From Acidobacteriota bacterium (lineage in GTDB: Bacteria > Acidobacteriota > Terriglobia > 20CM-2-55-15), in the NCBI GenBank assembly GCA_023265365.1, contig JAHFTY010000005.1, positions 872-48,896 of the forward strand: a stretch of DNA of 48,025 nt, in the 5' to 3' direction. The notes beneath the pieces are model-generated. The model ran no database searches. It saw only the letters and a program-made list of their open reading frames with translations, and was not told the origin of the DNA. Numbering within the stretch: position 1 is the stretch's first letter; every line of letters starts with the position of its first letter. Below, in pieces: positions 4,390 through 30,390 of the stretch. A program made the translations under genes and the position numbers.

Positions 4390-4409
4390 ATCGTGCCGGT
4401 CCGTTGGGC

Positions 4410-4465
4410 GCCAACCCGGCGCTTCGCGCCACCCTCTTCGTCGAGGCACTGCTGTTCCAATAAGG
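4410..4465. repeat. Partial copy of the mosaic intergenic repeat (H2 module reversed plus T-like module)
   Basis: ccaacccggcgcttcgcgccaccctcttcgtcgaggcactgctgttccaataagg matches the H2 and T modules of the 8596-8821 copy. Confidence 0.6.
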
Positions 4466-4533
4466 TGAGATCGAGACGACTATAAGGGTTGCGACGTGTT
4501 ACCGCTCACACGTTTAAGGAAGCCAAAACCCAT

Positions 4534-5837: not shown

Positions 5838-6049
5838 TCAAACAGCGAGCGTTTCAAAAGCGACGCGCAATGGCCCAGGCTTAGCAAAGGAGAAATTGAG
5901 TTTTTCAAACCCGATGACACGCCCAGAGATGTCCTTCATCAAGATCACTTCATCGCCAGTCTCTTCGCAGATTTGGACGAGGGGGGACGCGAAGCGCCGG
6001 GGTGGTGCCGCCAGTTCGGCGATTTCGAACGGCGCGCAGGACCCGGTCA
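5838..6049 (-). CDS. Possible DUF2283-like small protein (GTG start overlapping the MFS stop), weak call
   Basis: The C-terminal half GDEVILMKDISGRVIGFEKLNFS resembles the DUF2283 core (G-x-I-x-D-x-D-x-x-G-x-V-G-I-E). The N-terminal part is occupied by an H2 repeat module. Confidence 0.25.
5978..6010. repeat. Isolated H2 module of the mosaic repeat
   Basis: acgaggggggacgcgaagcgccggggtggtgcc. Confidence 0.55.
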
Positions 6050-7480
6050 CGATGGGACGGCGGATCTCCGGGCTTCCTGGATCGCTTTCCCCGTATTCGT
6101 CAGTGCGAGAATGACGATGCCGATGACGAACAGGACGATCAACGAGAGGATGGCCTGGCGGTAGGAGCCGGTTCTTCCGACCACGATTCCGAACAGCAGT
6201 GGTCCAATCCACGACGTCCCCCGTTCCGACACTTCATAGATCCCGAAAAACGACGCTTCGAACCCCGGCGGAATCATTCGCGCAAACAAGGACCGGGACA
6301 GTGCCTGCGATCCCCCGAGAACGATCGCGAGAACCGCGGCCATTCCCCACGCCTGCATCGTGGTGCGAAGCGCCGCGTACGTATACACGACGACGCCGGA
6401 CCACAGGAACAACGACGTCAACAGCGCGTTCTTCGTTCCGATCGCCCCCGAGATGCGTTCGAAGAGCATGGCGCCCAGGAACGCGACGAACTGTACCATC
6501 AGGAAAATCTCAAGCATGAAGGTCTGGTCCTCGCCGGCGAGGCGCTGCTGCTCCGTGAAGAGCTCCTGCGACAGGAACACCGAGGCGAGGCCGATGACGG
6601 TTTGAACGCCGTCGTTGTAGAAGAGGTAACCGACCAGGTACTTCAGCGTGTGAGGCAGCCGCTGCAACTGCCGGAAGGTTGCGCGGAGTTCCGTGAATCC
6701 CACGGTGAAGTAGCTCTGCCCGGATTTCAGCACTCGCGACGGAATCCGCGTCCGCAGACGCCGGAACGTGAGGATGGAAAAGCCGCCCCACCAGAGCCCG
6801 GCGGACAACAGGGACAGTCGAACCGCCAGTCCTGCGCCGATGCCCAGGTTCTTCGCGCTCAGCAGCAGAATGAAGTTCAGGAGAAGCAGCAGGCCGCCGC
6901 CGAGATATCCCAGCGCGAATCCACGGCTGGAAACCTTGTCGCCCTGATCGTCGCTGCAGATTTCCGGAAGGAACGCGTTGTACAAGACCAGGGATGCGCC
7001 AAAACTGAGGTTGGCGGCGATGAACAGAATCCCGCCGAAAAAATAGAAGCGGCCGGTGATGACGAACAAACCGCACGTCGCAACCGCGCCGATGTAGCAG
7101 AACAGGGCCATCAGTTTCTTCTTGAGGTGGGAATAGTCGGCGATGGCGCCCAAAACCGGCAGAAGGAAGACCTGAAGGAGTACCGAGATCGAAATGCAGA
7201 ACGGAAAGAACGACTTCGCGGTGACGGCCCCCAACGGCCCGAGATTAAGGACAACTCCGTTCTGACCGACCACGCCTTGAGCCAGCGAGGTGAGGTACGG
7301 CGACAGCAGCGCGCCCGCCACCGTTGTGCTGAATGCGGAGTTCGCCCAGTCATACATCATCCAGCCGAAGATTTCCCGGGAATCGTTGACGGTTTTCACG
7401 GCGGGTATCGTTTCACAGGTCCGGGATTCTTGTGCAGGCTTTAAGGTGGTATCCTTGTCGGCCGAAACTGCAAACCACAA
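6047..7480 (-). CDS. MFS transporter, UMF1 / Atg22-like family
   Basis: N-terminal W-MYDWANSAFSTT signature followed by ~12 hydrophobic segments. The start is uncertain: the TTG at 7480 is only 17 nt from the divergent gene, and a GTG at 7399 is possible. Confidence 0.85.
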   Translation of the reverse strand: MWFAVSADKDTTLKPAQESRTCETIPAVKTVNDSREIFGWMMYDWANSAFSTTVAGALLSPYLTSLAQGVVGQNGVVLNLGPLGAVTAKSFFPFCISISVLLQVFLLPVLGAIADYSHLKKKLMALFCYIGAVATCGLFVITGRFYFFGGILFIAANLSFGASLVLYNAFLPEICSDDQGDKVSSRGFALGYLGGGLLLLLNFILLLSAKNLGIGAGLAVRLSLLSAGLWWGGFSILTFRRLRTRIPSRVLKSGQSYFTVGFTELRATFRQLQRLPHTLKYLVGYLFYNDGVQTVIGLASVFLSQELFTEQQRLAGEDQTFMLEIFLMVQFVAFLGAMLFERISGAIGTKNALLTSLFLWSGVVVYTYAALRTTMQAWGMAAVLAIVLGGSQALSRSLFARMIPPGFEASFFGIYEVSERGTSWIGPLLFGIVVGRTGSYRQAILSLIVLFVIGIVILALTNTGKAIQEARRSAVPS

Positions 7481-7497
7481 TCTAAGGAGTAACTGCG

Positions 7498-8442
7498 ATG
7501 GAGCGAAAGAAAATTTCCGAGTTCCCGCAAGAGGTCATTAACCTCTTTGACCTCTTCATTCACGGTGATATCGATCGCCGTGACTTCATTGAAAGCGCCG
7601 GTAAAGTCGTCGGTGCGGTTGCTGCCGTAACCATGCTGGAAAGCCTGACTCCGAATTATGCGATGGCGCAACAGGTCACGCCGGACGACAAGCGGATCAA
7701 GGCATCCTGGGAGACTTACGATTCTCCGAACGGCACGGGCAAGATGAAGGGTTACCTGGTGCGTCCGGCGAACGCGAACGGAAAACTGCCCGCCGTTCTC
7801 GTTATTCATGAGAATCGCGGTCTCAATCCCTACGTGCAGGATGTCGTTCGCCGTTTCGCACTGGCGGGTTTCATGGCTTTCGGACCCGACGCGCTGAGTT
7901 CGCTCGGCGGCTATCCGGGCAACTGGAACTCCTACGTGGCGGGCAAGCAGGTGGACGCGACGGAGGTCACCACAAACGATCAAAAGGGCCAGCAGATGCA
8001 GTCGTCACTGGATGGCAAGAAACTGGTGGAAGACTGGGTCACCGGCGCGCAGTGGCTGAAATCCAGGGCCGATTGCACGGGCAGAATCGGCGCTGTCGGA
8101 TTCTGCTATGGCGGCGGCATTGTGAATACGCTGGCCGTCCGCCTGGGCGCGGACCTTGCGGCCGGCGCTCCCTACTACGGCTCGCAGCCGAGCGCCGATG
8201 ATGCGGCGAAGATCAAAGCGGCGTTGTGCCTGCACTACGCGGAGATGGATACGCGAATCACCGGCAACTGGCCGGCATACGAAACCGCTCTCAAGACGGC
8301 GAAAGTCATGTACGAGGGTCACGTTTACCCGGGCGCCCAGCACGGATTCCACAACGATTCGACTCCGCGCTACGACAAAGCCGCCGCCGATCTTTCGCAG
8401 CAGCGCACGATCGCCTGGTTCAACAAATATCTGAAGAGCTAA
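7498..8442 (+). CDS. Dienelactone hydrolase family protein with Tat-type signal
   Basis: AGGAG Shine-Dalgarno sequence. RRDFIESAG twin-arginine motif. LPAVLVIHENRGLNPYVQDV, GFCYGGG nucleophile elbow and a C-terminal HGFHND. Confidence 0.85.
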   Translation: MERKKISEFPQEVINLFDLFIHGDIDRRDFIESAGKVVGAVAAVTMLESLTPNYAMAQQVTPDDKRIKASWETYDSPNGTGKMKGYLVRPANANGKLPAVLVIHENRGLNPYVQDVVRRFALAGFMAFGPDALSSLGGYPGNWNSYVAGKQVDATEVTTNDQKGQQMQSSLDGKKLVEDWVTGAQWLKSRADCTGRIGAVGFCYGGGIVNTLAVRLGADLAAGAPYYGSQPSADDAAKIKAALCLHYAEMDTRITGNWPAYETALKTAKVMYEGHVYPGAQHGFHNDSTPRYDKAAADLSQQRTIAWFNKYLKS

Positions 8443-8519
8443 CGAGGCTGCGCCTCAGACCGACATCGCATGTGGTGCGCTATCCGCGCGATTGCCCTAT
8501 GTCGGTCTGAAGCCTCGTT
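8441..8519. repeat. Long imperfect hairpin directly after the hydrolase stop; related to the type-2 repeat
   Basis: Arms aacgaggct(gcgcc)tcagaccgacat and atgtcggtctgaagcctcgtt flank a ~32-nt loop. The right arm shares GTCGGTCTG with 4534-4569 and 5796-5828. No U-tract. Confidence 0.5.
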
Positions 8520-8566
8520 AGTTCAACTCGACACATCCACTACAGATTTTTTTATTCAAGACTCCC

Positions 8567-8866
8567 GAGCGCCACCCCTCGTTGAGGAGTGGCCGTCCCA
8601 ATGAAGCGAAATCGAGGAAAAGCGTTTTTCCCTCCTCGACGAGGAGGGGTGGCGCGAAGCGCCGGGGTGGTGCTTTCAAGAAATGGATTCTGTTGAACGA
8701 ACCGCCCCGCCGCTCCGCGGCACCCCGCCTGGCCAAGGCGGGGGAAAGTCCTCGTCCTGCGACTCCATGGCTTCATGTAATAACAGACCGCATCGCCCAA
8801 CGTTTTTTCTCGCTTAGGGAAACGCGAAGCGCCGGGGTGGTGTTTTCAAGAAATCTTCCTCGACGA
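8567..8866. repeat. Mosaic intergenic repeat, reference copy
   Basis: Complete T-H1-H2-L-E unit at 8596-8821, with partial modules on both sides. T is 8595-8629, H1 is 8630-8649 (ccctcctcgacgaggagggg), H2 is 8650-8672 (tggcgcgaagcgccggggtggtg), L is 8673-8780 and E is 8781-8821. A second H2 sits at 8822-8842. It fills the gap between two convergent stops. Confidence 0.85.
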
Positions 8867-8867
8867 C

Positions 8868-9683
8868 CTACATCTCCGTGCGTGCCGCCCAGAGGACGGG
8901 GAAGAATCGTTTGCTGAGAGTTGACGAGAGATAATCGACGCCCATGGTTCCGAGCGGCCCGCTTTTTCCGTAGGCCTGTTCGGCCATTTTCTGACCGGTC
9001 CCCGGTTTCCCTCCGATCATCCGCTGCGCCATCCGGACATGGTGTTCCCGCCAGAGCGAAAACATCTCATCGTATTCAATGAGCGCTTCGCAGAGCATTC
9101 GCAAGTCGTGGTCGCCGCGACGCCGATAGATTCCAACGACGGCGGCGATCTGGCTGCGCTCATCGTGGACGTCGATTCCACGGCTCTCCAGAACCTTCAT
9201 GAATCGATCCCACATGGATGGTTCGTCCAGCCTCTTCTGAAGCCGGGCGGTGGCCTCGGGGTCTCCTTTGAACATGCCCAGGTATCGCGGCTCCTTCAGG
9301 CCGGAAGCGAACTCGACTTCACGGAACTGATACGACTGGAAGCCGCTTGCGGGTTTCAGCAGATCGCGGAATTTGATGAAATCGGAGGGGATCATCGTTT
9401 CGAGCACGCTGAGTTTCGGGATGAACAGGCGAACGATCGAGGTGAGGCGCCGGATAAGGCGCTCGCTTTCGAGCGTGTCGCCCTGGTCGAGCAGCTCGAA
9501 AACCCGGTCGACTTCATGGATCATCAGCCGGAACCAGAGCTCGAAGACCTGATGGATGACGATGAAAAGCATTTCGTCGTGACAGCCGGGTTCCGCCAGA
9601 GGGCGCTGCAGCCCGAGAAGTTCAACGAGCTTCAGATAGCTGTTGTAATCCAGATCCGGTGGGGTATTTTGTTCGCTCGCCAT
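8868..9683 (-). CDS. kynA: Tryptophan 2,3-dioxygenase
   Basis: LDYNSYLKLVELLGLQRP...HDEMLFIVIHQVFELWF...GTGGSSG-like tail (GKPGTGQ). Length and motifs are typical of bacterial TDO. Confidence 0.9.
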   Translation of the reverse strand: MASEQNTPPDLDYNSYLKLVELLGLQRPLAEPGCHDEMLFIVIHQVFELWFRLMIHEVDRVFELLDQGDTLESERLIRRLTSIVRLFIPKLSVLETMIPSDFIKFRDLLKPASGFQSYQFREVEFASGLKEPRYLGMFKGDPEATARLQKRLDEPSMWDRFMKVLESRGIDVHDERSQIAAVVGIYRRRGDHDLRMLCEALIEYDEMFSLWREHHVRMAQRMIGGKPGTGQKMAEQAYGKSGPLGTMGVDYLSSTLSKRFFPVLWAARTEM

Positions 9684-10808: not shown

Positions 10809-11978
10809 ATGAAGTGCATAACGTTAGTTCTGGGTCTGGCCTTGTTGTCCGCCTGCAGTCAAGCGACCGACCAGCCGGCCGCCCCCGCCCAACCCGCTCC
10901 GGCGGCTCAGCCCGCATCGACGCCGTCGTCCATTCCGGGTTACGACATCGTCACGGTCGGCGCCGGCGGTGCGATTTCCGGAACGATTACGGTCTCGGGA
11001 ACCATTCCAAAGCTGCCGAAACGAAATCTGAACAAAGATCCGAAAGTGTGCGGAACCGCTCCCCGCGAGTCCCAGCAGCTCCTCGTTTCCCCAACCGGCG
11101 GCCTTCAAAATGCGATCGTCATTGTCGAAGACGTGAAAAAAGGGAAGCCCATTCCTGCCGCCCTCTTGAGCGCGGAAATCGATCAGAAGAACTGCGAATA
11201 CACGCCCCATGTCACGGTCGTTCCGGCCGGCGCCGAGATCGCCGTGAAGAACAGCGATCCGATACTGCACAACATTCATTTCTACCAGAACGATGAAAGC
11301 CTCTTTAACATCGCGCAGGCCAACCCGAACCAGGTCGATAAGCACACACTCGACAAGGCCGGCATGGTCTACGCGGAGTGCGACGTCCACGGGTGGATGC
11401 AGGGTCATGTGGCGGTCGTCAACAATCCGTACTTTGCCATCACCGACGCCGACGGCAAGTTCTCCATCGCCGACCTCGAGGCAGGAACGTACAAGGTGAA
11501 GATCTGGCATGAATACCTCGGCGAGAAGACGCAGGACGTGGCGGTGAGCGCCAAAGGGAATGCGGCATTGGATCTGGACCTGAAGGATCTTCTTGCGGCA
11601 AAGAAGCCCGCCGTAGAAAAACCGGTCACGGCGGCGCCTGCCGACAGGAAGGCCTCCGGTGGCGCCGAAGTCGTGGTCAAGATGATCACCGAGGGAGGGT
11701 CCTACCGTTTCGAACCGGCAAACCTGACCGTGAAAGCCGGAACCACCGTGAAGTGGGTGAACGATTCGGAGAACCGGCACACCGCGACCGACGATCCGAA
11801 GTTCGAAAAGAAACAGGGCCAGGCCATCCTGCCCGCCGGTGTCGAAGCCTGGGGCTCTCCGTTCCTGACCGGTGGCGAGACGTTTTCAATGACCTATACG
11901 GTGCCGGGGAAATATCAGTACTTCTGCCGCAATCACGGCCAGTTTGGAATGGAAGGTACCATCACAGTCACTCCTTGA
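10809..11978 (+). CDS. Lipoprotein with two cupredoxin (type-1 copper) domains and a carboxypeptidase-regulatory-like insert
   Basis: GGAGGG Shine-Dalgarno sequence and lipobox LLSAC. First site is HNIH...C-DV-H-GW-M. Second site is H...FCRNHGQFGM (C-x2-H-x4-M, plastocyanin/amicyanin-like). A FAITDADGKFSIADLEAGTYKVKIW beta-sandwich lies between them. Confidence 0.8.
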   Translation: MKCITLVLGLALLSACSQATDQPAAPAQPAPAAQPASTPSSIPGYDIVTVGAGGAISGTITVSGTIPKLPKRNLNKDPKVCGTAPRESQQLLVSPTGGLQNAIVIVEDVKKGKPIPAALLSAEIDQKNCEYTPHVTVVPAGAEIAVKNSDPILHNIHFYQNDESLFNIAQANPNQVDKHTLDKAGMVYAECDVHGWMQGHVAVVNNPYFAITDADGKFSIADLEAGTYKVKIWHEYLGEKTQDVAVSAKGNAALDLDLKDLLAAKKPAVEKPVTAAPADRKASGGAEVVVKMITEGGSYRFEPANLTVKAGTTVKWVNDSENRHTATDDPKFEKKQGQAILPAGVEAWGSPFLTGGETFSMTYTVPGKYQYFCRNHGQFGMEGTITVTP

Positions 11979-11992
11979 AAACCGCCCCATCT

Positions 11993-12075
11993 GCGCCACC
12001 CCTCCTCGTCGAGGAGGGGAAAACGCTTTTCCTCGATTTCGCGTCATTGGGACAGCAGCGCCTCAACGAGGAGAC
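11993..12075. repeat. Mosaic repeat, short reversed copy (part of H2, then H1 and T)
   Basis: gcgccacccctcctcgtcgaggaggggaaaacgcttttcctcgatttcgcgtcattgggacagcagcgcctcaacgaggag. Lies between convergent stops. Confidence 0.8.
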
Positions 12076-12080
12076 ATCCT

Positions 12081-12626
12081 TTACGGTTTTTTGGGCGGTG
12101 TCGCGGTCTTGGTGATTTCCGCGTCGATCCTCTTGATGATTTCGTCCGTCACGTCCGCCTGAGGATTCACGAAAAGCACCGATGTGTTCTGTGGATTCGA
12201 GGTGTCGACGATGAGTGCGAAGTTGCCCTCGGCCGCGAACTTGTTCAGCACGGTTTCGGCAATGGTGGCGATGGGGCGCATCAGTTCAGCGCGCAGCGCG
12301 TCGAGATCCTTCTGAGCGTCTTCCTGAATCCGCGTCAGTTCGGTCTGCCGCCGGTCGATGTCCTTGGACAATTCGAGCTTCTTGTCTTCGGCGAGCACAC
12401 GCTCCTGCGTCTTGAGTTTGTTTTGCGCGGTCTCGAGTTCCTTTTGTCTGGTTTCGATCGATTTTCGAAGGTCCTCGAATTTGGCCGTGAACGCGGCCTC
12501 CGCCTTCTTGCCTTCGATGGACTGGACGATCGCCCGCTCCATATCGACGACGCCGATTTTCGGTGCCTGTGCCATGAGTGGCGTTGCAGCCAGCGCCGAC
12601 GCCAGCAGCAGAACTATTCGCTTCAT
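12081..12626 (-). CDS. skp: OmpH/Skp family periplasmic chaperone
   Basis: Signal peptide, then KIGVVDMERAI and a long charged coiled-coil (KELETAQNKLKTQERVL...). Ends with NFALIVDTSN. Confidence 0.85.
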   Translation of the reverse strand: MKRIVLLLASALAATPLMAQAPKIGVVDMERAIVQSIEGKKAEAAFTAKFEDLRKSIETRQKELETAQNKLKTQERVLAEDKKLELSKDIDRRQTELTRIQEDAQKDLDALRAELMRPIATIAETVLNKFAAEGNFALIVDTSNPQNTSVLFVNPQADVTDEIIKRIDAEITKTATPPKKP

Positions 12627-14795: not shown

Positions 14796-16082
14796 TCAGA
14801 AACTGTAGCGAAGGATCAGCGTCGCATGGGAGTTGTGGCGATACTGTCCCAGGAAGTCGGTGGGCTTGCCGAAAATCACGCTGAAGTTCGCCGTCGCCCG
14901 CCAGTGCTGACCAAGCGTTTGGGAGTATTCCGCGCGGGTCCAGGCGCCATCGAGGTTCTGCCTGACGCTGGCATCGAAAGCAATGCTGCGGTTGGCGTCG
15001 ATCGTCAGGCGGGCCGTGCCGAGAAACGTTTTCGTGAAGCCGCGGTCGGGAGCAAACGTTCCGTCCTGAGTGCCTGTTCTCGTCAGGGCTTCGCCGGCGT
15101 AACCGCTGACGAACGTCCACTCACCGGAGTGTCGTTCGAGTTGAAGAACATACTGCGCGTATTCATCGGCGCGTGGGTCTTTGGAGGAGAAGTAAGCCGT
15201 CTCCCCTTTCAGGCTGAACCAGTGGAGGGGGAAGGCCAAATCCGCACCAAGCATCCGCATCTTCGGATAGAACCTCTGCAGCTCAATGACGAGCAATGAG
15301 GATGGGGGTGTGAACGGAGGCGAGAAAGTCTGAGGCGGCGGACTCGCCGATGGCCGATCGACGAACGTTGCATGCTCTGCCAACGAAGGCAGATGGTTGA
15401 AGCCTTCATAAAAGGAGCCGGAGAATTCCACCAGTCCGATATGGTTCCATCGGAATCCCGTCTGCGGGCCTCCCGGAAAGCGGGCCCCTCCGTCTCTGAA
15501 GACAACGAATTGAGGAGTGTTGGCCGGAAGGACCACCCATCGCTGATCCTGCAGCGGCAGCCGGCTGGGCGTGAACCGTGGCGACAGGACCGCTTCGACG
15601 GTGTCCGCTCCTCTTTCATAGCTGAGGCGCGCTGCAGTGATGCCGAGAAAGTCATTGTCGAGGACGGTGAGGAAGTCGCGCGGCGCGAATCGATCCGTCG
15701 GATTGAGAAGGTCGGCCTTGCCCCAGCGGATGAACTGCTTTCCGGCTTCGATCGTCAGTCCGCCCGTGTGGTAAGTCGCACTCAGGCGGCGGACGGATAG
15801 CATCGGGCGCCTCTGCTCACGATCCCACCAGGACGCGTCGAACCTCCGTTCCACCTGGCGATGGGTGTCGGTTCGAAGGTCCAGCGCGCCGCTCACCTGA
15901 AGCTTCGAGGAAGGCTTGTAAAAACCTTCGTAACGCAGAAGAGCTTCGCCCACGGTATGCGCGCGATCTGCCGGCGTCGTTTCCGGATAACCGGTCGCCC
16001 GCGTCTCGACGAAACCGCGCTGTGTGTAGTTCTGTCCGAAACCCGAGGTGACGCGGGCGAAGAAAAACACGATGGACAACAT
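14796..16082 (-). CDS. Outer-membrane beta-barrel protein (DUF1302-like by eye)
   Basis: Alternating beta-strand pattern and terminal ...LILRYSF. GKQFIRWGKADLLNPTD motif. I placed the start at MLSIVFFFARV because everything upstream in the 538-aa ORF is translated repeat DNA. The start is uncertain. Confidence 0.65.
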   Translation of the reverse strand: MLSIVFFFARVTSGFGQNYTQRGFVETRATGYPETTPADRAHTVGEALLRYEGFYKPSSKLQVSGALDLRTDTHRQVERRFDASWWDREQRRPMLSVRRLSATYHTGGLTIEAGKQFIRWGKADLLNPTDRFAPRDFLTVLDNDFLGITAARLSYERGADTVEAVLSPRFTPSRLPLQDQRWVVLPANTPQFVVFRDGGARFPGGPQTGFRWNHIGLVEFSGSFYEGFNHLPSLAEHATFVDRPSASPPPQTFSPPFTPPSSLLVIELQRFYPKMRMLGADLAFPLHWFSLKGETAYFSSKDPRADEYAQYVLQLERHSGEWTFVSGYAGEALTRTGTQDGTFAPDRGFTKTFLGTARLTIDANRSIAFDASVRQNLDGAWTRAEYSQTLGQHWRATANFSVIFGKPTDFLGQYRHNSHATLILRYSF

Positions 16083-16095
16083 GCAAAACCCTAAG

Positions 16096-16369
16096 CCCCT
16101 CCCCGCGGTGAGGCACTGCTGTCCCAATGAACCGAAATCGAAGAGAAGCTGCGCGGCTTTACACACAAAGTCGCAGGCCGAAGAAATTTCCCCGCCTCGG
16201 CCAAGGCGGGGTGCCGCGAAGCGGCGGGGCGGTTCGTTCAACAAAGTCGATTTCCTGAACAACACCACCCCGGCGCTTCGCGCCATCCCTCCTCGCTGAG
16301 GAGGGGAAAACGCTTCTCCTCGATTTCGGTTCATTCGGAACAGCAATGCCTCGCCCGAGGAGGGAATTT
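16096..16369. mobile_element. MITE-like copy of the mosaic repeat with terminal inverted repeats
   Basis: Left end is ctgctgtcccaatgaaccgaaatcgaagagaagc (16117-16150). The reverse complement of the right end (16311-16344) is tgctgttccgaatgaaccgaaatcgaggagaagc, matching at 31 of 34 positions. Weaker symmetry extends to 16096 and 16369. The interior is L-H2-H1 in reverse orientation. Confidence 0.6.
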
Positions 16370-16401
16370 TGGACTCCACACCGACTTCTTGAAGCAAAGG
16401 T

Positions 16402-17163
16402 CTACCCCTCACGGCGGATGGCTTGCAGCGTGAAGTCTTCGTCTTTCATGGGCAGGTTGTACTGCAGTTTCTCCAGCTTCAGGACGGTCCGGCTGTTTCG
16501 CTTCAGGTCTTCCACTTCCGTGGTATGAGCGGTCCAGAATCCCTGAACGCTGCGGATGTCCGAGTATTTGATTCGGCGAATGAGACCGGCATTCCTGAAG
16601 TTCTCGATTTGGGCGAGGACGTAGTTATCTTTGCGGATCCACAGGATCGAGTGCGTGTACTGCGACGACTTTGTGCTTTTCGGCCGCGACTCGATTTTCC
16701 AGCACGGGGTTCCGACGAAGGATTCCTCGGCGAGCAGTTTGTAGTCGAACTGGTTCGTGTCGCGTTCCTCGAGATCCTCGAAGCTGAAGTCCGTGCCGAA
16801 GAAGCGGGTTGAGCGGTCCTGCATGGCGATGCGCCGCTCGCGGGCGAGAGAAGGCGTCCACATCCATTGATCGGAAGAGCGGTCCGGATGATTCACAATG
16901 AGCAGCGCCATCCCTTTCACTTCGGCGGGCGCCGTAAATCGCAGCACGGCTTTGCTGTTGCCGTGCGAGCCGATGCGATCGAATACCCAGCGTTTTTCGG
17001 TGACCTTCGTTTTCGCGTCGATGACCTGCAGCGTTCCTTCGTAGCGCTGAGAGCCGGAGCGGGCGCGCCGCTGGGCCTCCTCGACAATTTGTTTTCCGTC
17101 CTGCGCGAACGCAGGCATCCCTCCCGAGACGGCCAGGACCAGTGCGAGAATGAACCTACTCAT
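16402..17163 (-). CDS. LolA-like 'outer membrane lipoprotein-sorting' family protein
   Basis: Signal peptide MSRFILALVLAVSG. Carries KAVLRFTAPAEVKGMALL, DQWMWTPSL.RERRI and GTDFSFEDL. The start overlaps the permease stop. Confidence 0.8.
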   Translation of the reverse strand: MSRFILALVLAVSGGMPAFAQDGKQIVEEAQRRARSGSQRYEGTLQVIDAKTKVTEKRWVFDRIGSHGNSKAVLRFTAPAEVKGMALLIVNHPDRSSDQWMWTPSLARERRIAMQDRSTRFFGTDFSFEDLEERDTNQFDYKLLAEESFVGTPCWKIESRPKSTKSSQYTHSILWIRKDNYVLAQIENFRNAGLIRRIKYSDIRSVQGFWTAHTTEVEDLKRNSRTVLKLEKLQYNLPMKDEDFTLQAIRREG

Positions 17164-19708: not shown

Positions 19709-20379
19709 CGCCGGTTGTCCCCCTCGATTCGTCCATCCCGCAGCCTGATCGTCCGGGCGCACTGAGCCGCCACCCCCATGTCATGCGTCACGATCAGAAC
19801 GGTCGAGCCGAGCCGCGCGTGAAGGTCCTGGATGAGCCTCAGGATTTCTTCGCCGGTGCGGGAGTCGAGGTTTCCGGTCGGCTCGTCCGCCAGCAGAATC
19901 GGGGGATAGACCGACAGCGCCCGCGCGATCGCCACGCGCTGGCGTTCGCCTCCGGACAGTTCTTCAGGCAGGTGCTCGACGCGATGCCCCAGTTGAACGA
20001 GATCGAGCAGCTCGTTTGCCCGGTCCTCGATTTTTTTCCGGGGCCAGTTTCTCAGGTGAAGCGGAAGCGCGACGTTTTCCAGGCAGTTCAGCGTGGGAAG
20101 AAGATTGAAAAACTGAAAGATGAAACCAATCTTGTCGCGGCGAACGCGTGTCAACCCGTCGTCGGAGAGCTGAGCCAGGTTTTCGCCTTCGATCCGGATT
20201 TCGCCGGAGCTGGGCCTGTCCAACCCGCCGATCAGGTTCAGCAGTGTCGATTTTCCGGAACCGGATGGACCGACGATCGATACGACCTCGCCGCGGGGAA
20301 TATGAAGTTCGACATTTTCAAGTGCGGTGGCCCTCCGTTTACCATCGAAGACCTTCGAAACGCGGTTCAAATCAATCAT
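19705..20379 (-). CDS. ABC transporter ATP-binding protein (LolD/MacB/YbbA type)
   Basis: Walker A GPSGSGKST, signature LSGGERQR, Walker B ILLADEPTGNLD. ATG (MIDLNRV) is preferred. A TTG at 20388 is the alternative start. Confidence 0.93.
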   Translation of the reverse strand: MIDLNRVSKVFDGKRRATALENVELHIPRGEVVSIVGPSGSGKSTLLNLIGGLDRPSSGEIRIEGENLAQLSDDGLTRVRRDKIGFIFQFFNLLPTLNCLENVALPLHLRNWPRKKIEDRANELLDLVQLGHRVEHLPEELSGGERQRVAIARALSVYPPILLADEPTGNLDSRTGEEILRLIQDLHARLGSTVLIVTHDMGVAAQCARTIRLRDGRIEGDNRR

Positions 20380-20387
20380 CCCGCTCA

Positions 20388-20393
20388 ATCATA
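20388..20393 (-). promoter_or_regulatory. Candidate -10 hexamer TATGAT, 8 nt upstream of the ABC ATPase ATG
   Basis: Minus strand reads gctgcTATGATtgagcgggATG, with no Shine-Dalgarno sequence. Confidence 0.35.
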
Positions 20394-20500
20394 GCAGCCC
20401 CGCCTTGATTCCATTAGAATCGGTGGGCTGCAACTGTGTGCGCCGGCTCCGGCCGGCGCGTCGGCCATTGGCGACGGCTACGTTGTTTGAAGGAGGGTTC

Positions 20501-23314
20501 ATGAGGAAAAGGATGCTCGGCTCGCTTCTGCTGGTGTTGTTGGTCTCGGCCACGCTCCAGGCTCAGGGGAGGATCACGAATCCGAAAGATCAATTCGGAT
20601 TCAACATCGGCGACGATTACCAACTCGTCAACTACACCGACTACGAAAAGTACATCAAGAAACTGGACCAGGAGTCCGATCGCATGACGCTGCAGGTGAT
20701 CGGCAAGTCCGAGGAAGGCCGCCCGATGTACCTCGCGGTGATCACGTCGCCCGAGAACCACAAGAAACTTGACCGGTACAAACAGATCGCCAAACAACTC
20801 ACCCTTGCCGAAGGAATCACCGACGCTCAGGCGAAGGCGATGGCGCAGGAAGGCAAGACGATTGTCTGGATCGACGGCGGCATTCACGCCACGGAGGTTC
20901 TTGGGGCGCAACAGTTGATCGAGCAGATTTATCAGATGGTGAGCCGCACCGATGCGGAAACGATGCGATTCCTGAACGACACCATCGGCATCTATTGCCT
21001 CGTCAACCCCGACGGAATGGAGCTCGTCTCGAACTGGTACAACCGGGAGCCCGATCCGAAGAAACGGTCCACCGGTGGTGTGCCTGTTCTTTACAACAAG
21101 TACGCCGGACACGACGACAATCGCGATTTCTTCATGGTGAACCTCTCCGAGTCCGACGCCATTAACCGCGTTCTCTACCGCGATTTTTTCCCGGAGGTGA
21201 TGTACAACCACCACCAGACCGGTCCCGCGGGCACAATCATGTTTTCGCCTCCCTTCCGCGATCCTTTCAATTACAACTTCGATCCGCTCGTGATCTCGGA
21301 GCTGGACGAGGTTTCGGCGGCCATCCACAGCCGGATGATCGAAGAAGGAAAGCCCGGCGTCACGATGCGTTCCGGGGCGAACTATTCGACCTGGTACAAC
21401 GGCGGTCTGCGAACCACGACCTATTTTCACAACATGGTGGGCATCCTCACCGAAACGATCGGCAATCCGACGCCGGTGGAAGTGCCGCTGATCTTCTCTC
21501 AACAGCTTCCGCACCAGGATCTCCCGTTTCCCGTGCCTCCCGGCGTGTGGCACTTCCGGCAGTCGATCGACTATTCGATCACCGCGAACCGCGCGATCCT
21601 CGACGTTGCGTCCCGGAATCGCGAACGGTATCTCTACAACATGTACGTGAAAGGGAAGAACTCGACCGAGCGCGGCAACCGCGACTCGTGGACCGTCAGC
21701 CAGCACAAGCTTCAGGCCGTTCAGGATCTGGCTCTGGCCGACCGTCAGGCCGGGCAGCGCGGCGCACCTGCGGCCGGCGGGCGCGGCGGCGGTGGCGGCC
21801 GCGGAAACGCCAGCTTCAACGGCGACGAAGCGCAGAAGTACTGGAAGATGATCCAGGCGCCCGACAAGCGGGACCCGCGCGGCTACATTCTTCCATCGGA
21901 CCAGCCGGACTTTCTAACCGCCGTCAAGTTTCTGAATACTTTGATCAAGAACGGCGTCACGCTTCATCGTGCGACCGCCAACTTCACGGTGAACGGGAAG
22001 AGCTATCCCTCGGGATCCTTCGTGGTGAAAACGGCGCAGGCCTATCGGCCGCATATTCTCGACATGTTCGAGCCGCAGGACCATCCCGACGACTTTGCTT
22101 ACCCGGGGGCTCCGCCGACTCCTCCTTATGACAACACGGGCTGGACGCTTGCCTTCGAGATGGGCGTGAAGTTCGACCGCATCCTTGACGCGTTCGACTG
22201 TCCGTGCCAGAAACTCCCGGTGGAGGAACTGAAACCGCCGGCCGGCAAGGTGACGACGATTTCGAGCGCTCCGGCCGGATACCTGCTCACCCATGACACA
22301 AACGACTCGTTCCTGGCGATCAATCGACTTCTCGCGGCGAAGGAAAACGTTTACTCCATCAAGAATTCGTTCGGCGCCAACGGCAAGACGTATCCCGCAG
22401 GAACTCATTTCATCCCCGCCAAGGCAACCACTCTGCCTCTTCTGCAAAAGCTTGCCGGCGACGCCGGCCTGACGTTCGAAGCCACAGCGGCCAAGCCGGC
22501 CGGAGAAGCCATGATGCTGCGGCCGATGAAAGTCGGTTTGTTCGATCGCTACGGCGGCTCGATGCCGACCGGCTGGATTCGCCAGCAACTGGAACGATTC
22601 GGATTCAATTTCGAACTCGTGTTCCCGCCAACGCTGGATGCCGGCAACCTTGCCCGGAAGTACGACGTCCTCATTTTCCCGGACGACGCCATTCCTGAAG
22701 GCGGCGGCGCTGGTTTCGGCGGTGGCGGAGCGGCGTCCTCGAACATTCCGCCGGAGTTTGCCGCGCGGATGGGCAATGTGACCGATGCGAAGACCATTCC
22801 GGAAATCAAGAAGTTCCTCGAAGATGGCGGAACGGCCCTGGTCATCGGAGGGTCCACCTCTCTCGGTTATAAGCTCGGCCTGCCGATCGCCAACGCGCTC
22901 ACCGAAAATGTGAACGGCCGGGAAGTCAACCTGCCTCAGACCAGGTTCTACATTCCGGGCTCGGTCCTGCAGGCCAAAGTGGACAACACCACACCGCTGG
23001 CCTGGGGCATGCCTGGCCGCGCCGACGTGTTCTTCGACAGCAGCCCGGCGTTCAAGCTGAAGCCGGAGGCCGCGGCCGCCGGCGTCAGGCCGGTTGCGGT
23101 GTATGACTCCGCCACACCGGTGAGGAGCGGATGGGGATGGGGTCAAAGTGCTCTGAAGGATACCGTGGCGATCGTTGAAGCGCCGGTGGGCAAAGGGAAA
23201 GTATTTTTGTTTGGCCCGGAGATCATGTTCCGCGGGCAGCCGCACGGAACCTTCAAATTCTTGTTCAACGGGATTTATTACGGCAGGACCGAGACCGTGA
23301 ATTTGAACCAGTAG
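20501..23314 (+). CDS. Large exported M14-family zinc carboxypeptidase-like protein
   Basis: AGGAGGG Shine-Dalgarno sequence and signal peptide. Carries SEEGRPMYLAVITSPEN, IDGGIHATE and NPDG. The long C-terminal extension has two Gly-rich inserts. Confidence 0.85.
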   Translation: MRKRMLGSLLLVLLVSATLQAQGRITNPKDQFGFNIGDDYQLVNYTDYEKYIKKLDQESDRMTLQVIGKSEEGRPMYLAVITSPENHKKLDRYKQIAKQLTLAEGITDAQAKAMAQEGKTIVWIDGGIHATEVLGAQQLIEQIYQMVSRTDAETMRFLNDTIGIYCLVNPDGMELVSNWYNREPDPKKRSTGGVPVLYNKYAGHDDNRDFFMVNLSESDAINRVLYRDFFPEVMYNHHQTGPAGTIMFSPPFRDPFNYNFDPLVISELDEVSAAIHSRMIEEGKPGVTMRSGANYSTWYNGGLRTTTYFHNMVGILTETIGNPTPVEVPLIFSQQLPHQDLPFPVPPGVWHFRQSIDYSITANRAILDVASRNRERYLYNMYVKGKNSTERGNRDSWTVSQHKLQAVQDLALADRQAGQRGAPAAGGRGGGGGRGNASFNGDEAQKYWKMIQAPDKRDPRGYILPSDQPDFLTAVKFLNTLIKNGVTLHRATANFTVNGKSYPSGSFVVKTAQAYRPHILDMFEPQDHPDDFAYPGAPPTPPYDNTGWTLAFEMGVKFDRILDAFDCPCQKLPVEELKPPAGKVTTISSAPAGYLLTHDTNDSFLAINRLLAAKENVYSIKNSFGANGKTYPAGTHFIPAKATTLPLLQKLAGDAGLTFEATAAKPAGEAMMLRPMKVGLFDRYGGSMPTGWIRQQLERFGFNFELVFPPTLDAGNLARKYDVLIFPDDAIPEGGGAGFGGGGAASSNIPPEFAARMGNVTDAKTIPEIKKFLEDGGTALVIGGSTSLGYKLGLPIANALTENVNGREVNLPQTRFYIPGSVLQAKVDNTTPLAWGMPGRADVFFDSSPAFKLKPEAAAAGVRPVAVYDSATPVRSGWGWGQSALKDTVAIVEAPVGKGKVFLFGPEIMFRGQPHGTFKFLFNGIYYGRTETVNLNQ

Positions 23315-23316
23315 GC

Positions 23317-23590
23317 GTTCGAAGCGCCGGCCGCCCCGCCGCTCCAACATTCCCTAAGCGAGAAAAAACGTTGGGCGATGCGGTCTGGTAATGACATGAA
23401 GCCGTGGAGTCGCAGGACGAGGACTTTTCCCCGCCTTGGCCAAGGCGAGGTGCCGCGGAGCGGCGGGGCGGTTCGTTCAACAAACCCAAATCTTTGGAAA
23501 GCACCACCCCGGCGCTTCGCGCCACCCCTCCTCGTCGAGGAGGGGAAAACGCTTTTCCTCGATTTCGCTTCATGGGGACAGCAGTGTTTT
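23317..23590. repeat. Mosaic repeat, complete reversed copy (E-L-H2-H1-T)
   Basis: The reverse complement of 23348-23584 aligns end to end with 8596-8821, about nine-tenths identical by eye. Lies between convergent stops. Confidence 0.85.
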
Positions 23591-23615
23591 CCCGTCCTGG
23601 CGACTCAGGAGATTA

Positions 23616-25585: not shown

Positions 25586-26095
25586 ATGGCCATTTCCGAT
25601 TATCTCCGAAGCGTCCGCGCAAAAGTCGGTCACGACCTGCTGGTGCTGCCGTCCGCCGCCGCAGTGGTTCGGGACGATCGCGGCCGCGTGCTTTTCGGCC
25701 TTCACGCGGACAAAAAAATCTGGGTTGTGCCTGGCGGTCTCGTCGAACCTGGAGAACTGCCTGCAGACGCTGCCGTTCGAGAAACCTGGGAAGAGACCGG
25801 TCTTCTCATTGAACTGACCGGCCTGCTCGGCGTGGTCGGCGGGCCGGACCTGGTGATCCATTACGACAACGGAGATGTGGCTTCCTATGTCGGCACGATC
25901 TTCCGTGCGCGGGCCGTCGGGGGCGAACTCGAGGCGGACGGTTCGGAGACCCTGGATGTCCGCTACATGTCCCGGACGGAGTTGGAGAAAGTGGAACATT
26001 CAGCCTGGATTCACGCGGCCCTGGATTTGATTTTCGCGAGGTCCGGCGAACACGCATTTCAACCCGCGACGTGGAAGCCGCCGGCCCGCCCTTGA
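25586..26095 (+). CDS. NUDIX hydrolase
   Basis: Nudix box GGLVEPGELPADAAVRETWEETG. ATG preceded by AGGTGGG. The ORF track's TTG lies 6 nt upstream. Confidence 0.85.
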   Translation: MAISDYLRSVRAKVGHDLLVLPSAAAVVRDDRGRVLFGLHADKKIWVVPGGLVEPGELPADAAVRETWEETGLLIELTGLLGVVGGPDLVIHYDNGDVASYVGTIFRARAVGGELEADGSETLDVRYMSRTELEKVEHSAWIHAALDLIFARSGEHAFQPATWKPPARP

Positions 26096-26104
26096 TTCGG
26101 GCAT

Positions 26105-26143
26105 CGCATTCCCTAAGCGAGAAAAAACGTTGGGCGATGCGGT
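26105..26143. repeat. Isolated E module of the mosaic repeat (reversed)
   Basis: cattccctaagcgagaaaaaacgttgggcgatgcggt is near-identical to 23348-23386. Confidence 0.7.
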
Positions 26144-26192
26144 GTTGTCCAGCCCCGGGCTTCCACGGTCTTGGCGATCCGGACCGATCGGC

Positions 26193-26693: not shown

Positions 26694-26699
26694 CTTCGC

Positions 26700-30076: not shown

Positions 30077-30112
30077 ACTCAGGATTCTGAATCGCAGACA
30101 CCAAATCCCGGA

Positions 30113-30390
30113 CCCCTCCTCGACGAGGAGGGGTGGCGCGAAGCGCCGGGGTGGTGCTGTTCAAGAAATTGTTTTTGTTGAAACGAACCGCCCCGCCGCT
30201 GGCGCGGCACCTCGCCTTGGCCAAGGCGGGGAAAAGTCCTCGTCCTGCGACTCCATGGCTTCATGTAACAACCAGACCGCATCGCCCAACGTTTTTTCTC
30301 GCTAAGGGAATATTGGATCCAAACCCGACTCTTTGTGCAAAGCCGCAAAGGCGGGGAAAAGTCCTCGTCCTGCGAATTCGCGGTTTCAAT
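30113..30390. repeat. Mosaic repeat, forward copy H1-H2-L-E (30113-30310) plus a duplicated L tail (30345-30390)
   Basis: ccctcctcgacgaggaggggtggcgcgaagcgccggggtggtg...cgccttggccaaggcggggaaaagtcctcgtcctgcgactccatggcttcatgt...cagaccgcatcgcccaacgttttttctcgctaagggaa. The second ggcggggaaaagtcctcgtcctgcga starts at 30350. Confidence 0.85.

Follow-up and report, generated by a model that had tools for sequence, protein, structure and literature searches.

Short intergenic repeats with secondary structure have been described in bacteria in several forms. REP, BIME and REPIN sequences are dispersed, short, G+C-rich intergenic hairpins which lie mostly after genes and probably act as single-stranded DNA. 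Their hallmark is a conserved GTAG-type tetranucleotide at the base of one imperfect palindrome, 20-40 nt long, and as a rule each family is confined to a species or genus. A cognate RAYT (Y1/HUH) gene, typically with repeats on its flanks, is expected in the same genome. MITEs, such as Correia, ERIC and RUP, are non-coding and multicopy, with truncated and nested copies; they have defined ends formed by terminal inverted repeats, and each copy is flanked by a target-site duplication. The BoxC/PIT/TMECO family of E. coli and other Proteobacteria, recognised decades ago, consists of class II triplex repeats for which triplex formation has been proven in vitro (Holder et al., 2015; PMC4666352). 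These repeats are always intergenic, without strand bias, occur as inverted A+B pairs and are patchily distributed in close relatives, the TMECO consensus being CCCTCNCCC-N3-6-GGGNGAGGG-N3-GGGNGAGGG (PMC4666352). NMR of TMECO has excluded a quadruplex and favoured a triplex, and it has been reported that purine-motif triplexes cannot form in RNA (PMC4666352). A stable BoxC triplex has gone undetected in vivo, neither a function nor a spreading mechanism has been established, and BoxC/PIT display no promoter or terminator activity (PMC4666352). According to the same source, two published triplex searches have been limited to loops of 1-6 nt (ITxF) and 0-10 nt (Hoyne et al., 2000). Mini-hairpin DNA of the GCGNAGC and GCGNNAGC types is described as extraordinarily stable in a manner dependent on the closing pair (PMC13037366, PMC3201870).

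The stretch of DNA analysed here (48,025 nucleotides, hereafter the window) carries a repeat family which an earlier note, made from the sequence alone, had described as modular, rich in hairpins and occupying most of the non-coding DNA. Each of the copies claimed is present at or very near the coordinates given, and the reversed copy at 23317-23590, judged about nine-tenths identical by eye, is 87-94% identical to 8567-8866, depending on the segment. The share of non-coding DNA holds roughly for large gaps only: over the 20 kb for which genes were called, repeats fill each of the three gaps exceeding 150 nt and occupy about half of the intergenic bases in total. The core pattern GTGSCGCGNAGCGSCGGGGYGGT has 13 matches in the window at no more than 3 mismatches, against 0.02 expected from shuffles. 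When the 48-kb window was scanned, with filters off, with a covariance model of a 48-nt unit, one unit of ~47 nt was found in 10 intact copies, all scoring above 46 bits, and in 5 decayed ones. The large intergenic gaps are filled by five composites of ~170-300 nt each; five long copies can be aligned over ~250 nt, and the identity between copies is 80-97%.

On its G-rich strand the unit is arranged as 5'-(CCCCTCCTY arm)-loop-(purine arm RAGGAGGGG)-T-(G+C hairpin)-(tail GGGGTGGTK)-3', with an arm consensus of CCCCTCCTT / AAGGAGGGG / GGGGTGGTT. Loop 1, closed by the hairpin of the two arms (H1), has 3-8 nt, and loop 2 comprises the T and a G+C hairpin (H2) of 13-21 nt, 14-22 nt in total. The earlier note had treated H1, H2 and the following GGGGTGGTG as independent modules; its picture of a modular intergenic mosaic in two orientations stands, but these three are parts of a single unit. 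Since its "L" module contains a second unit on the opposite strand, the core of the family is a tail-to-tail doublet, and all five doublets in the window are tail-to-tail and unite the two types A and B. The composites, their parts and the remaining pieces are listed below, the scores being those of the covariance model.

4408-4474, minus strand: decayed unit (4408-4469; core with 2 mismatches; 26.8 bits) with an a-arm-like stretch, downstream of an AcnX swivel-domain gene
5959-6008, plus strand: decayed solitary unit, H2 and tail retained, H1 lost (28.4 bits), in or adjoining ORFs without a Pfam match
8567-8866, plus strand: composite 1, between the convergent stop codons of DLH hydrolase and kynA; a-arm, unit A, spacer, unit B (minus strand), b-arm, E module, truncated H2 and tail
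8569-8626, plus strand: a-arm of composite 1, CCTCGTTGAGG..GTCCCAATGAAGCGAAATCGAGGAAAAGCGTTTT, a lineage-specific flank containing the "T" module of the earlier note
8627-8673, plus strand: full unit of type A, composite 1 (63.1 bits; also found by the class II triplex scan); CCCTCCTC-GAC-GAGGAGGG, G/T linker, GGCGC-GAA-GCGCC, tail GGGGTGGTG
8699-8745, minus strand: full unit of type B, composite 1 (53.5 bits); CCCCGCC-TTGGCCA-GGCGGGG, T, GCCGC-GGA-GCGGC, tail GGGGCGGTT
8746-8783, plus strand: b-arm of composite 1, GAAAGTCCTCGTCCTGCGACTCCATGGCTTCATGTAATAA, by eye a diverged inverted counterpart of the a-arm
8784-8821, plus strand: E module of composite 1, CAGACCGCATCGCCCAACGTTTTTTCTCGCTTAGGGAA
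8807-8843, plus strand: decayed unit
8819-8854, plus strand: truncated unit of composite 1, lacking H1 and made up of H2, tail and the first part of the spacer (19.7 bits); a 97% direct repeat of 8653-8684, 170 nt downstream
11979-12075, minus strand: half element (37.7 bits), unit A H1 and the start of H2 plus a-arm, between the stop codons of cupredoxin and Skp
11979-12021, minus strand: decayed unit
16095-16369, minus strand: composite 2, between a LolA-like gene and an unknown ORF, co-directional; a-arm, unit B, unit A, inverted a-arm
16188-16235, plus strand: full unit (B), composite 2
16262-16308, minus strand: full unit (A), composite 2
23317-23590, minus strand: composite 3, between the convergent stop codons of M14 and pckG; truncated unit, E (23348-23389), b, unit B, unit A, a-arm
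23427-23474, plus strand: full unit (B), composite 3
23501-23547, minus strand: full unit (A), composite 3
26105-26143, minus strand: E module on its own in the gap where the NUDIX and SixA stop codons meet; repeat match of 100% over 35 nt
30098-30397, plus strand: composite 4, between CHAD and tRNA_bind, co-directional; unit A, unit B, b, E (30273-30310), and an additional partial H1'+b copy at 30343-30397
30111-30157, plus strand: full unit (A), composite 4
30185-30233, minus strand: full unit (B), composite 4
37945-38113, plus strand: composite 5, located downstream of PhoD; short a-like arm, unit A whose H1 is decayed, unit B, b-arm
37964-38001, plus strand: decayed unit (A), composite 5
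38027-38074, minus strand: full unit (B), composite 5
40285-40324, plus strand: solitary full unit of type A with a shortened H1 (46.5 bits), 13 nt from the stop codon of a PhoR-like kinase

In composite 1 the two units are separated by a 25-nt spacer. By eye, the reverse complement of the E module resembles a shortened a-arm, which gives this composite imperfect inverted termini; in composite 2 the a-arm is inverted at both ends, so that its termini resemble TIRs.

A set of 150 units (137 of them distinct) was used for the study of covariation, and it demonstrates, at the level of sequence, that both hairpins are maintained by compensatory changes: 98.4% of the Watson-Crick cells are paired and 74 cells are changed on both sides, with slid controls pairing at 43-67%. 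The tail is likewise demonstrated to mirror the purine arm, T standing in the place of A, and to covary with it, 1069 of the 1109 cells (96.4%) fitting a G.G-C, T.A-T or A.A-T triad as compared to 42-57% in slid controls. None of 500 shuffles reached the Watson-Crick values and none of 1000 the triad count (shuffle mean 1039 +/- 3.4), counts which overstate the significance, the copies being phylogenetically non-independent. At triad 5 the change from A to T is seen in 123/125 cases; at triad 9, A is answered by T in 52/56 and G by G in 14/24. Rare variants of arm and tail obey the same rule (GAAGGGGG to GGGGGTTG, AAAAGGGG to GGGGTATT, GAGGGGGG to GGGGGGTG and GAGGAGGGG to GGGGTGGTG). A generic strict class II scan of the window returned type A units only, with 7 perfect triads, and nothing in shuffles. 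Type B is an exception, having C opposite C-G at triad 5, a non-standard triad which covaries in 6/7.

The stem of H2 varies among GGCGC, GCCGC, GCCC, GCCTGC, GCCGGC and others. Where the loop had been left free in the search pattern, it is C|GNA|G in 16 of 30 units and C|GNNA|G in another 4, with GAA, GCA, GTA and GGA all represented among the GNA loops. DNA fold prediction for the unit at 8627-8673 forms H1 and H2 and leaves the tail free; triplexes cannot be represented in ViennaRNA. For doublets a long inter-unit hairpin is predicted (-44 kcal/mol, z -6.1), which competes with the unit fold. In double-stranded DNA, the duplex competes with the fold of the unit.

The core has been found in genomes labelled Pseudomonadota, Acidobacteriota, Bacillota, Bacteroidota and Desulfobacterota, and in one MAG labelled Actinomycetota. 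It is near-identical across these phyla, although the sample was picked by a pattern which fixes H2 and the tail, so that their conservation is partly imposed. The carriers are mostly uncultured and extend to dozens of unrelated assemblies, some of them with contigs of megabase length; among the carriers are Thiorhodospira sibirica ATCC 700588, Advenella sp. RU8 and megabase MAGs of Competibacteraceae and Terriglobia. It had no matches in 841 kb around relatives of pckG, a negative control of 80 JGI metagenome loci having only pckG in common with the window, nor in two syntenic relatives (82-84% identity; ~83% for protein). PLSDB plasmids and GenBank phages gave no match to the unit, and neither did a BLAST search of 5,426 complete E. 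coli genomes. The a, b and E modules were absent from 876 kb searched for them; across the sequences compared, it is only these outer modules that are lineage-specific, and the core is not. The gap between the LolA-like gene and the following ORF measures ~319 nt here, as compared to 17 and 122 nt, both repeat-free, in the two relatives, in which the gene order across composite 2 is conserved. As the sole empty sites come from relatives at ~83% protein identity, the insertion boundaries are undefined. This wide but patchy distribution points to horizontal spread together with lineage-specific bursts.

With respect to gene context, intergenic status was judged from the Pfam-supported genes of the window and not from stop-to-stop ORFs. 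Five convergent gaps had been claimed, of which four have Pfam support (DLH hydrolase and kynA, cupredoxin and Skp, M14 and pckG, NUDIX and SixA); the fifth, DUF2335 and phoR, is a putative one, with two short plus-strand ORFs lying there. The three co-directional gaps are in agreement with Pfam (LolA-like to unknown ORF, CHAD to tRNA_bind, PhoD to Metallophos). None of the three divergent gaps in the annotated 20-kb stretch holds a repeat; in a wider sample 24 of 75 clusters lie in convergent gaps and 11 of 75 in divergent ones. Solitary units are without orientation bias, the G-strand being sense to the flanking genes in 13 cases and antisense in 18. Stop-to-stop ORFs proved too noisy in G+C-rich DNA to establish an intergenic location: those of 200 aa or more cover 43% of units and 79% of random positions. 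One ORF start in the window is called within a repeat.

We consider it reasonably probable, on comparative sequence grounds, that the repeats are non-autonomous intergenic elements amplified in the lineage of this Acidobacteriota (Terriglobia-like) genome and built on a unit of hairpin, mini-hairpin and fold-back third strand. With the unit strand single-stranded, the tail would fold back antiparallel along the purine arm and form 7-9 G.G-C and T.A-T triads. The result would be an intrastrand triplex of the class II purine motif, with the mini-hairpin as its second loop. Purine-motif triplexes and C-GNA-G mini-hairpins are both favoured in DNA over RNA, which suggests that the unit probably acts as single-stranded DNA and not as a transcript. 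Possible settings for the single-stranded state would be the lagging-strand template, the non-template strand, and repair or transfer intermediates. Unlike units pair tail-to-tail (A+B), and the a, b and E arms, with imperfect inverted symmetry, wrap these doublets to give BIME/MITE-like mosaics of ~170-300 nt. The weakest step is the spread itself: the folded single strand may be the substrate of an enzyme encoded elsewhere and acting in trans, or it may stall replication and promote template switching. Copies would then persist where insertion is harmless, mainly at gene 3' ends. A bolder proposal, tentative and unlikely, is that the unit could be the recognition structure of an unrecognised, horizontally spreading mobile system of single-stranded DNA, its fold being read by a trans enzyme of neither RAYT nor DDE type and being under selection.

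The likening of these repeats to a BIME/REP-type mosaic more than to a single transposon, made in the earlier note, is in keeping with the modular, intergenic copies in two orientations, and by tblastn no transposase or RAYT is encoded in the window. That the family is not a described one is correct insofar as there is no Rfam or literature match (six 11-13-mers of the core are absent from the relevant papers), but an analogous class, BoxC/PIT/TMECO, has been described (PMC4666352). Were the repeats of REP/REPIN type, which is unlikely, the hairpins would be recognised by a RAYT (HUH/Y1) enzyme whose gene lies elsewhere in the genome, and the doublets would be REPINs mobilised as single-stranded DNA. 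Intergenic inverted doublets of unlike units in a mosaic, comparable to the Y and Z REPs of BIMEs, are in favour of such a system, as are the patchy, lineage-specific distribution, the long imperfect hairpin predicted for the doublet and the structural features favouring single-stranded DNA. However, E. coli RayT and IS608 TnpA, used as tblastn queries, found no RAYT/IS200-type gene in the window and 192 loci, a small part of any genome, the hairpin has no GTAG-type head (GGGGT precedes H2), and a core near-identical across phyla is at odds with REPs being normally restricted to a species or genus. A REP/REPIN system could coexist with the triplex fold and would provide the mobiliser that is otherwise missing. 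It is quite unlikely that the composites are classical MITEs, deletion derivatives of a DDE insertion sequence moved by cut-and-paste, with the triplex unit as internal cargo. The inverted a-arms terminating 16095-16369, the resemblance by eye of the E reverse complement to a short a-arm, and the central position of the unit of Competibacteraceae in a TA-flanked palindrome (TATAGCGTTCC...GGAACGCTATA) would agree with this. Against it, the ends of the window copies do not coincide, sharp common termini and target-site duplications are lacking (on inspection, none of the five long copies has a duplicated flank or one in common with another), units also occur armless and alone, as at 40285-40324 and many other loci, and the window has no transposase. 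Moreover, the arms are wholly different between lineages while the unit is kept, which identifies the unit, and not the arms, as the conserved entity. Among the neighbouring genes, no family recurs in an all-against-all BLASTP of ORFs from 100 loci, and no transposase-like gene was seen on reading the ORFs between nearby unit clusters.

The position of most copies directly after stop codons, in the four Pfam-confirmed convergent gaps and at the DUF2335 and phoR pair called in the earlier note, and the 24 convergent as against 11 divergent clusters of 75 would suit an element acting in RNA, as a family of small RNAs, a stabiliser of 3'-UTRs or a terminator serving both of two convergent genes, and H1 and H2 can fold as RNA too. 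Such a role is nonetheless very unlikely. Neither H1 nor H2 is followed by a U-tract, no promoter was found and the only terminator predicted is a weak one within the a-arm on the opposite strand; orientation bias is absent (13 sense, 18 antisense); Rfam, a check proposed in the earlier note, gives nothing for the repeats at the gathering threshold or even at E <= 5. The mirror covariation of tail and purine arm has no Watson-Crick explanation; RNA is reported to be unable to form purine-motif triplexes, and BoxC/PIT are without promoter or terminator activity (PMC4666352). With several G-runs on one strand (GGAGGGG, GGGG, GG) and C-runs opposite, a G-quadruplex or i-motif might take the place of the triplex, as might a site for an abundant DNA-binding protein, but this is highly improbable: a quadruplex has no need of the conserved complementary C-rich arm, leaves the A<->T covariation of purine arm and tail unexplained and is excluded by NMR for the analogous TMECO (PMC4666352), while dimeric protein sites do not show mirror symmetry. 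That the repeats are an assembly artefact, through collapsed or chimeric joins, is almost inconceivable. The window is indeed a metagenome contig, and short-read assemblies break at repeats; even so, the copies differ (80-97% identity), have unique flanks and adjoin intact genes, a Logan contig, assembled independently, matches window 26114-28424 at 100% identity and breaks off 30 nt inside the E module, as a multicopy repeat would lead one to expect, two relatives keep the gene order over composite 2, and unrelated assemblies by the dozen, some with megabase-long contigs, have the unit.

Several other resemblances were considered and rejected. An Rfam miRNA model matched a separate hairpin at 8434-8526, a chance match to a long hairpin. 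A peptide-coding function (..KEGWREAPGW..) was rejected because a different peptide results from the compensatory changes in the stems, a likeness to CRISPR repeats in Competibacteraceae (GT-hairpin-..GAAAC) because the flanks are not conserved in other lineages, and a likeness to a DnaA box in the H1 loop because this loop is likewise not conserved in other lineages.

The covariation of arm and tail is evidence, on comparative grounds, that the third-strand interaction is under selection, and the natural variation makes the relevance of triplexes in cells a testable question. Should the bolder proposal of a mobile single-stranded-DNA system hold, the three-way covariation across phyla would show for the first time, by comparison of sequences, that bacteria form intrastrand DNA triplexes in the living cell and that these are of consequence. 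In practical terms, such repeats break short-read assemblies and mislead gene callers.

When compared to REP, BIME and REPIN sequences, the repeats described here share the inverted doublets of two unlike variants, the mosaics with other short motifs and the location mostly at gene 3' ends, and differ in having two hairpins with a mirror-repeat tail, no GTAG head and a core common to several phyla. With MITEs such as Correia, ERIC and RUP they share a length of 170-300 nt and the imperfect inverted symmetry of whole composites; unlike these, the conserved part is internal and not terminal, target-site duplications and defined termini are missing, and units occur alone. The C-GNA-G or C-GNNA-G closure is common to the mini-hairpin DNAs d(GCGNAGC) and d(GCGNNAGC), a motif which in those papers is one of oligonucleotides (PMC13037366, PMC3201870) and which here is a linker of a larger fold in a genomic repeat. 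The likeness to BoxC is one of arrangement: both have the same strand order of C-rich arm, loop, purine arm, loop and mirror G-rich arm, the class II purine motif, and 7-9 triads of G.G-C, with T.A-T or A.A-T where the arm has A. Both are intergenic without strand bias, frequently form inverted pairs of unlike subtypes A+B, are abundant in some lineages and missing from close relatives, and have no linked gene. The consensus differs, being CCCCTCCTT / AAGGAGGGG / GGGGTGGTT in contrast to CCCTCNCCC / GGGNGAGGG in TMECO. Loop 2, of 3 nt in BoxC, is here a T and a G+C hairpin of 13-21 nt, usually a C-GNA-G mini-hairpin. By the limits quoted in PMC4666352, loop 1 lies within and loop 2 (14-22 nt) outside both published searches (ITxF; Hoyne et al.), and the use of a stable mini-hairpin as second loop appears as a new architecture beyond their reach. 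BoxC is known from Proteobacteria only, whereas the present unit occurs in genomes labelled as six phyla and here lies within mosaics of 170-300 nt whose arms are lineage-specific. Since BoxC/PIT/TMECO have already been described (PMC4666352), the kind of repeat is not new; judged by its sequence features, the unit is apparently an undescribed relative in kind of the BoxC triplex repeats, in which the architecture and the sequence family appear to be new.

Every repeat copy listed in the earlier note, in both orientations, has been recovered by a reading of 8400-9000 and a whole-window repeat search, and the core pattern GTGSCGCGNAGCGSCGGGGYGGT has 13 matches in the window at three or fewer mismatches, against 0.02 expected.

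Repeat copies in the window
8560-8870, + strand, long copy, aligning over about 250 nt with the four others
16085-16375, - strand, long copy, aligning over about 250 nt
23300-23600, - strand, long copy, aligning over about 250 nt
30095-30400, + strand, long copy, aligning over about 250 nt
37935-38125, + strand, long copy, aligning over about 250 nt
4400-4485, shorter repeat piece
5965-6020, shorter repeat piece
11975-12085, shorter repeat piece
26095-26155, shorter repeat piece
40270-40335, shorter repeat piece

The placement of the copies outside genes is likewise borne out by gene calls and by Pfam searches of the flanking ORFs, which locate them mostly directly 3' of stop codons. Gene calls cover a 20-kb stretch of the window, where repeats fill each of the three gaps exceeding 150 nt and are missing from all three divergent gaps. 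The window is a metagenome contig. An independent Logan contig from SRR14366766 (L195) is 100% identical to window 26114-28424 and terminates 30 nt into E, one of the modules flanking the repeat core; its terminal 30-mer is found again in full at 8787-8816 and 23355-23384, and over 28 nt at 30276-30303. Stopping inside E is the behaviour of a real multicopy repeat in de Bruijn assembly, and the intergenic repeat family is real.

The separate modules T, H1, H2, L and E described previously have been regrouped into one unit plus flanks, with L found to hold a second unit on the opposite strand. The unit is about 47 nt long and is read on the G-rich strand.

Parts of the unit, in order
C-rich arm of hairpin H1, CCCCTCCTC in type A
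loop, 3-7 nt
purine arm of H1, GAGGAGGGG
single T
H2, a 5-bp G+C hairpin with a GNA loop, GGCGC-GAA-GCGCC
tail, GGGGTGGTG

Type B, an unlike variant, has CCCCGCC / GGCGGGG, GCCGC-GGA-GCGGC and the tail GGGGCGGTT. A covariance model built from 43 aligned units finds 10 full and five decayed units in the window. The doublets are alike in all five cases, consisting of one A and one B unit placed tail-to-tail with 25-27 nt between them and enclosed by the arms a, b and E. Compared by eye, b is an inverted and diverged form of a, and E in reverse complement is a shortened version of a, so that the composites (repeat copies of about 170-300 nt) are large imperfect palindromes; the window repeat search places arm a at each end of the copy at 16095-16369. 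Truncated and nested pieces reflect secondary rearrangement, examples being a 32-nt direct repeat (8653-8684 and 8823-8854) and an extra half copy (30343-30397).

Both hairpins covary. In a sample of 150 units (137 distinct), whose cross-phylum members were picked with a pattern fixing H2 and the tail, 98.4% of H1 and H2 cells are paired and 74 hairpin cells carry compensatory double changes. Observed values were reached in none of 500 shuffles, a count that overstates significance because unit copies are not independent, as do the tail shuffles below; slid controls pair 43-67% only. The tail covaries as well, mirroring the purine arm with A changed to T.

Purine arms and their tails
AAGGAGGGG, tail GGGGTGGTT
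GAGGAGGGG, tail GGGGTGGTG
GAAGGGGG, tail GGGGGTTG
AAAAGGGG, tail GGGGTATT
GAGGGGGG, tail GGGGGGTG
GGGGGGGGG, tail GGGGGGG
AGGCGGGG, tail GGGGCGGT

Watson-Crick pairing gives a mirror repeat no meaning. Such a repeat is the hallmark of purine-motif triplexes, whose third strand lies antiparallel to the purine strand. Antiparallel triads (G.G-C, T.A-T or A.A-T) account for 1069 of 1109 cells (96.4%), compared with a shuffle mean of 1039 +/- 3.4 (0/1000 as high) and 42-57% in slid controls, and in type B units one triad carries a non-canonical C. The position of the tail fits triplex geometry as well: it starts at the H1 base after H2 and would follow the H1 groove, H2 serving as its connecting loop. 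The closure of H2 is C-GNA-G, with N varying freely, and C-GNA-G or C-GNNA-G occurs in 20 of the 30 units whose loop was left free by the search pattern. This closing matches the "mini-hairpin DNA" motif GCGNAGC / GCGNNAGC (PMC13037366, PMC3201870). Nearest-neighbour DNA folding of the unit forms H1 and H2 and leaves the tail unpaired, and for the doublet it yields a long imperfect hairpin that competes with this fold (-44 kcal/mol, z -6.1).

Near relatives have been used to look for empty sites. Named relatives of the window's pckG, at 76% identity, belong to Terriglobales and Acidobacteria, which makes a Terriglobia-like acidobacterium the probable source of the window. No unit occurs in 841 kb around 80 pckG relatives. 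In the two nearest relatives compared at the DNA level (L196 and L197), pckG is 82-84% identical to that of the window and the gene order NUDIX | pckG ... ABC-FtsX-LolA-like-unknown ORF-DciA-GatC-GatA is kept, and neither locus contains a unit or an a, b or E module. The gap from the LolA-like gene to the unknown ORF measures about 319 nt in the window, 275 nt being the composite at 16095-16369 (-), versus 17 and 122 nt in the relatives, so that a filled site in the window faces empty ones in both relatives, although at family-level distance. The recorded call for the ORF at 14796-16412 (-) is 496 aa with its start at 16287, inside this composite; judged by alignment with 429-431-aa orthologues, the true start lies near 16082, and the repeat therefore misled the gene caller. 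Unlike L196 and L197, the window carries an M14 peptidase gene (20327-23314) between pckG and the ABC transporter gene. Repeats lie at three of four synteny breakpoints versus one of eight conserved junctions (junctions concerned: 23317-23590, 26105-26143 and 11979-12075), small numbers that are confounded with convergent gaps.

Other features of the window have also been noted. A long single-copy hairpin at 8443-8522, directly 3' of the DLH hydrolase stop codon, has arms AACGAGGCT..CAGACCGACAT and ATGTCGGTCTGAAGCCTCGTT (about 25 bp) and a loop of about 30 nt; no other copy occurs in the window or related loci, and it is separate from the repeat family. Its only Rfam match, a sub-threshold one to a plant miRNA, is taken as chance. 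At 39431-39775 (-), a 114-aa ORF matches PF11867 (type I restriction enzyme HindI-like subunit) in its C-terminal part only (profile 228-323 of 329), which suggests a putative gene remnant. Two adjoining short overlapping ORFs at 39832-40214 (+), where the earlier note placed DUF2335, resemble a single gene for a small membrane protein that has been frameshifted. The 480-aa ORF at 6002-7444 (+) has no Pfam match, carries a decayed unit at its 5' edge and lies in a stretch of unusually high AT skew (0.157, 6001-8000).

The core is not private to the window's genome. A GTDB scan with a 23-nt pattern, one genome per species, gave at least 100 loci, with a patchy distribution across phyla. Six matches without H1 (Streptomyces, Sphaerisporangium, Streptosporangium, a Gemmatimonadaceae MAG and a Burkholderiales MAG) are apparently chance. 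The remaining matches listed carry the whole unit including H1, although H1 was not in the pattern; among them are Competibacteraceae, Contendobacter and Thiorhodospira; Burkholderiales, Advenella, Gallionellaceae and Methylophilaceae; Terriglobia, Pyrinomonadaceae and further Acidobacteriota; Oscillospiraceae and further gut Bacillota; Tannerella and Muribaculaceae; and a Rickettsiales MAG, a Desulfobulbaceae MAG and one Streptomycetaceae-labelled MAG. The unit is also present on 12 IMG/VR contigs, two of which, classified as viral (L107 and L112), have three units each over several kilobases, reflecting either entry into phage or prophage DNA or host DNA within the contigs. No match was found in PLSDB plasmids, GenBank phages or E. 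coli genomes. Only the unit, plus the doublet in a few Betaproteobacteria, is common to the window and other lineages; the arms a, b and E are lineage-specific, with no match outside the window, and no gene family was found to recur beside the unit. In an uncultured betaproteobacterium (L077, 5414-5540), one complete unit is followed by three head-to-tail copies of purine arm, H2 and tail with a 38-nt period, a local tandem amplification.

When single-stranded, the G-rich strand would be expected to fold into a hairpin, a triplex and a mini-hairpin. Relative to flanking genes, solitary units show no orientation bias (13 sense, 18 antisense); gap-type statistics for loci beyond the window are based on crude ORF calls. 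Since the triplex and the mini-hairpin favour DNA and solitary units lack orientation bias, we infer that the relevant molecule is single-stranded DNA and not RNA. Speculatively, either an enzyme acting in trans could use the fold as its substrate, or the fold could obstruct replication and so promote copying elsewhere, and copies would last where harmless. A RAYT-type or MITE-type mobiliser may be involved; neither a mobiliser nor a target-site duplication was found in the window. In Competibacteraceae and Contendobacter (L003, L028, L049, L064, L087 and L091), the unit is at the centre of a TA-flanked palindromic element of about 125 nt with termini TATAGCGTTCC...GGAACGCTATA and, inside these, a further inverted repeat CAGTTGTGGAA / TTCCACAACTG; the element looks like a TA-targeting MITE with the triplex unit at its apex; the unit can thus at least ride on MITEs.

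The closest known system is the E. coli BoxC repeat, also termed PIT or TMECO, CCCTCNCCC-N3-6-GGGNGAGGG-N3-GGGNGAGGG, a class II purine-motif intrastrand triplex seen in vitro by CD and NMR, with no stable triplex detected in vivo (Holder et al. 2015, PMC4666352). BoxC is always intergenic, without strand bias and without promoter or terminator activity; it is plentiful in some genera and missing from close relatives, and the five inverted pairs in MG1655 each join a type A and a type B copy (PMC4666352). It has been linked to local genome instability, which the repeats at synteny breakpoints echo, and purine-motif triplexes are stated to be unable to form in RNA (PMC4666352). The searches of Holder et al. 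allowed loops of 1-6 nt and, as reported there, the earlier ones of Hoyne et al. loops of 0-10 nt (PMC4666352); the second loop of the present unit, at 14-22 nt, would escape both, and later papers on bacterial intrastrand triplexes do not describe the unit. The kind of repeat is already known, and the family is a new architectural variant of intrastrand-triplex (BoxC-like) repeats, widespread in mostly uncultured bacteria and amplified in the window into BIME/MITE-like mosaics, a finding of more interest than a private REP family.
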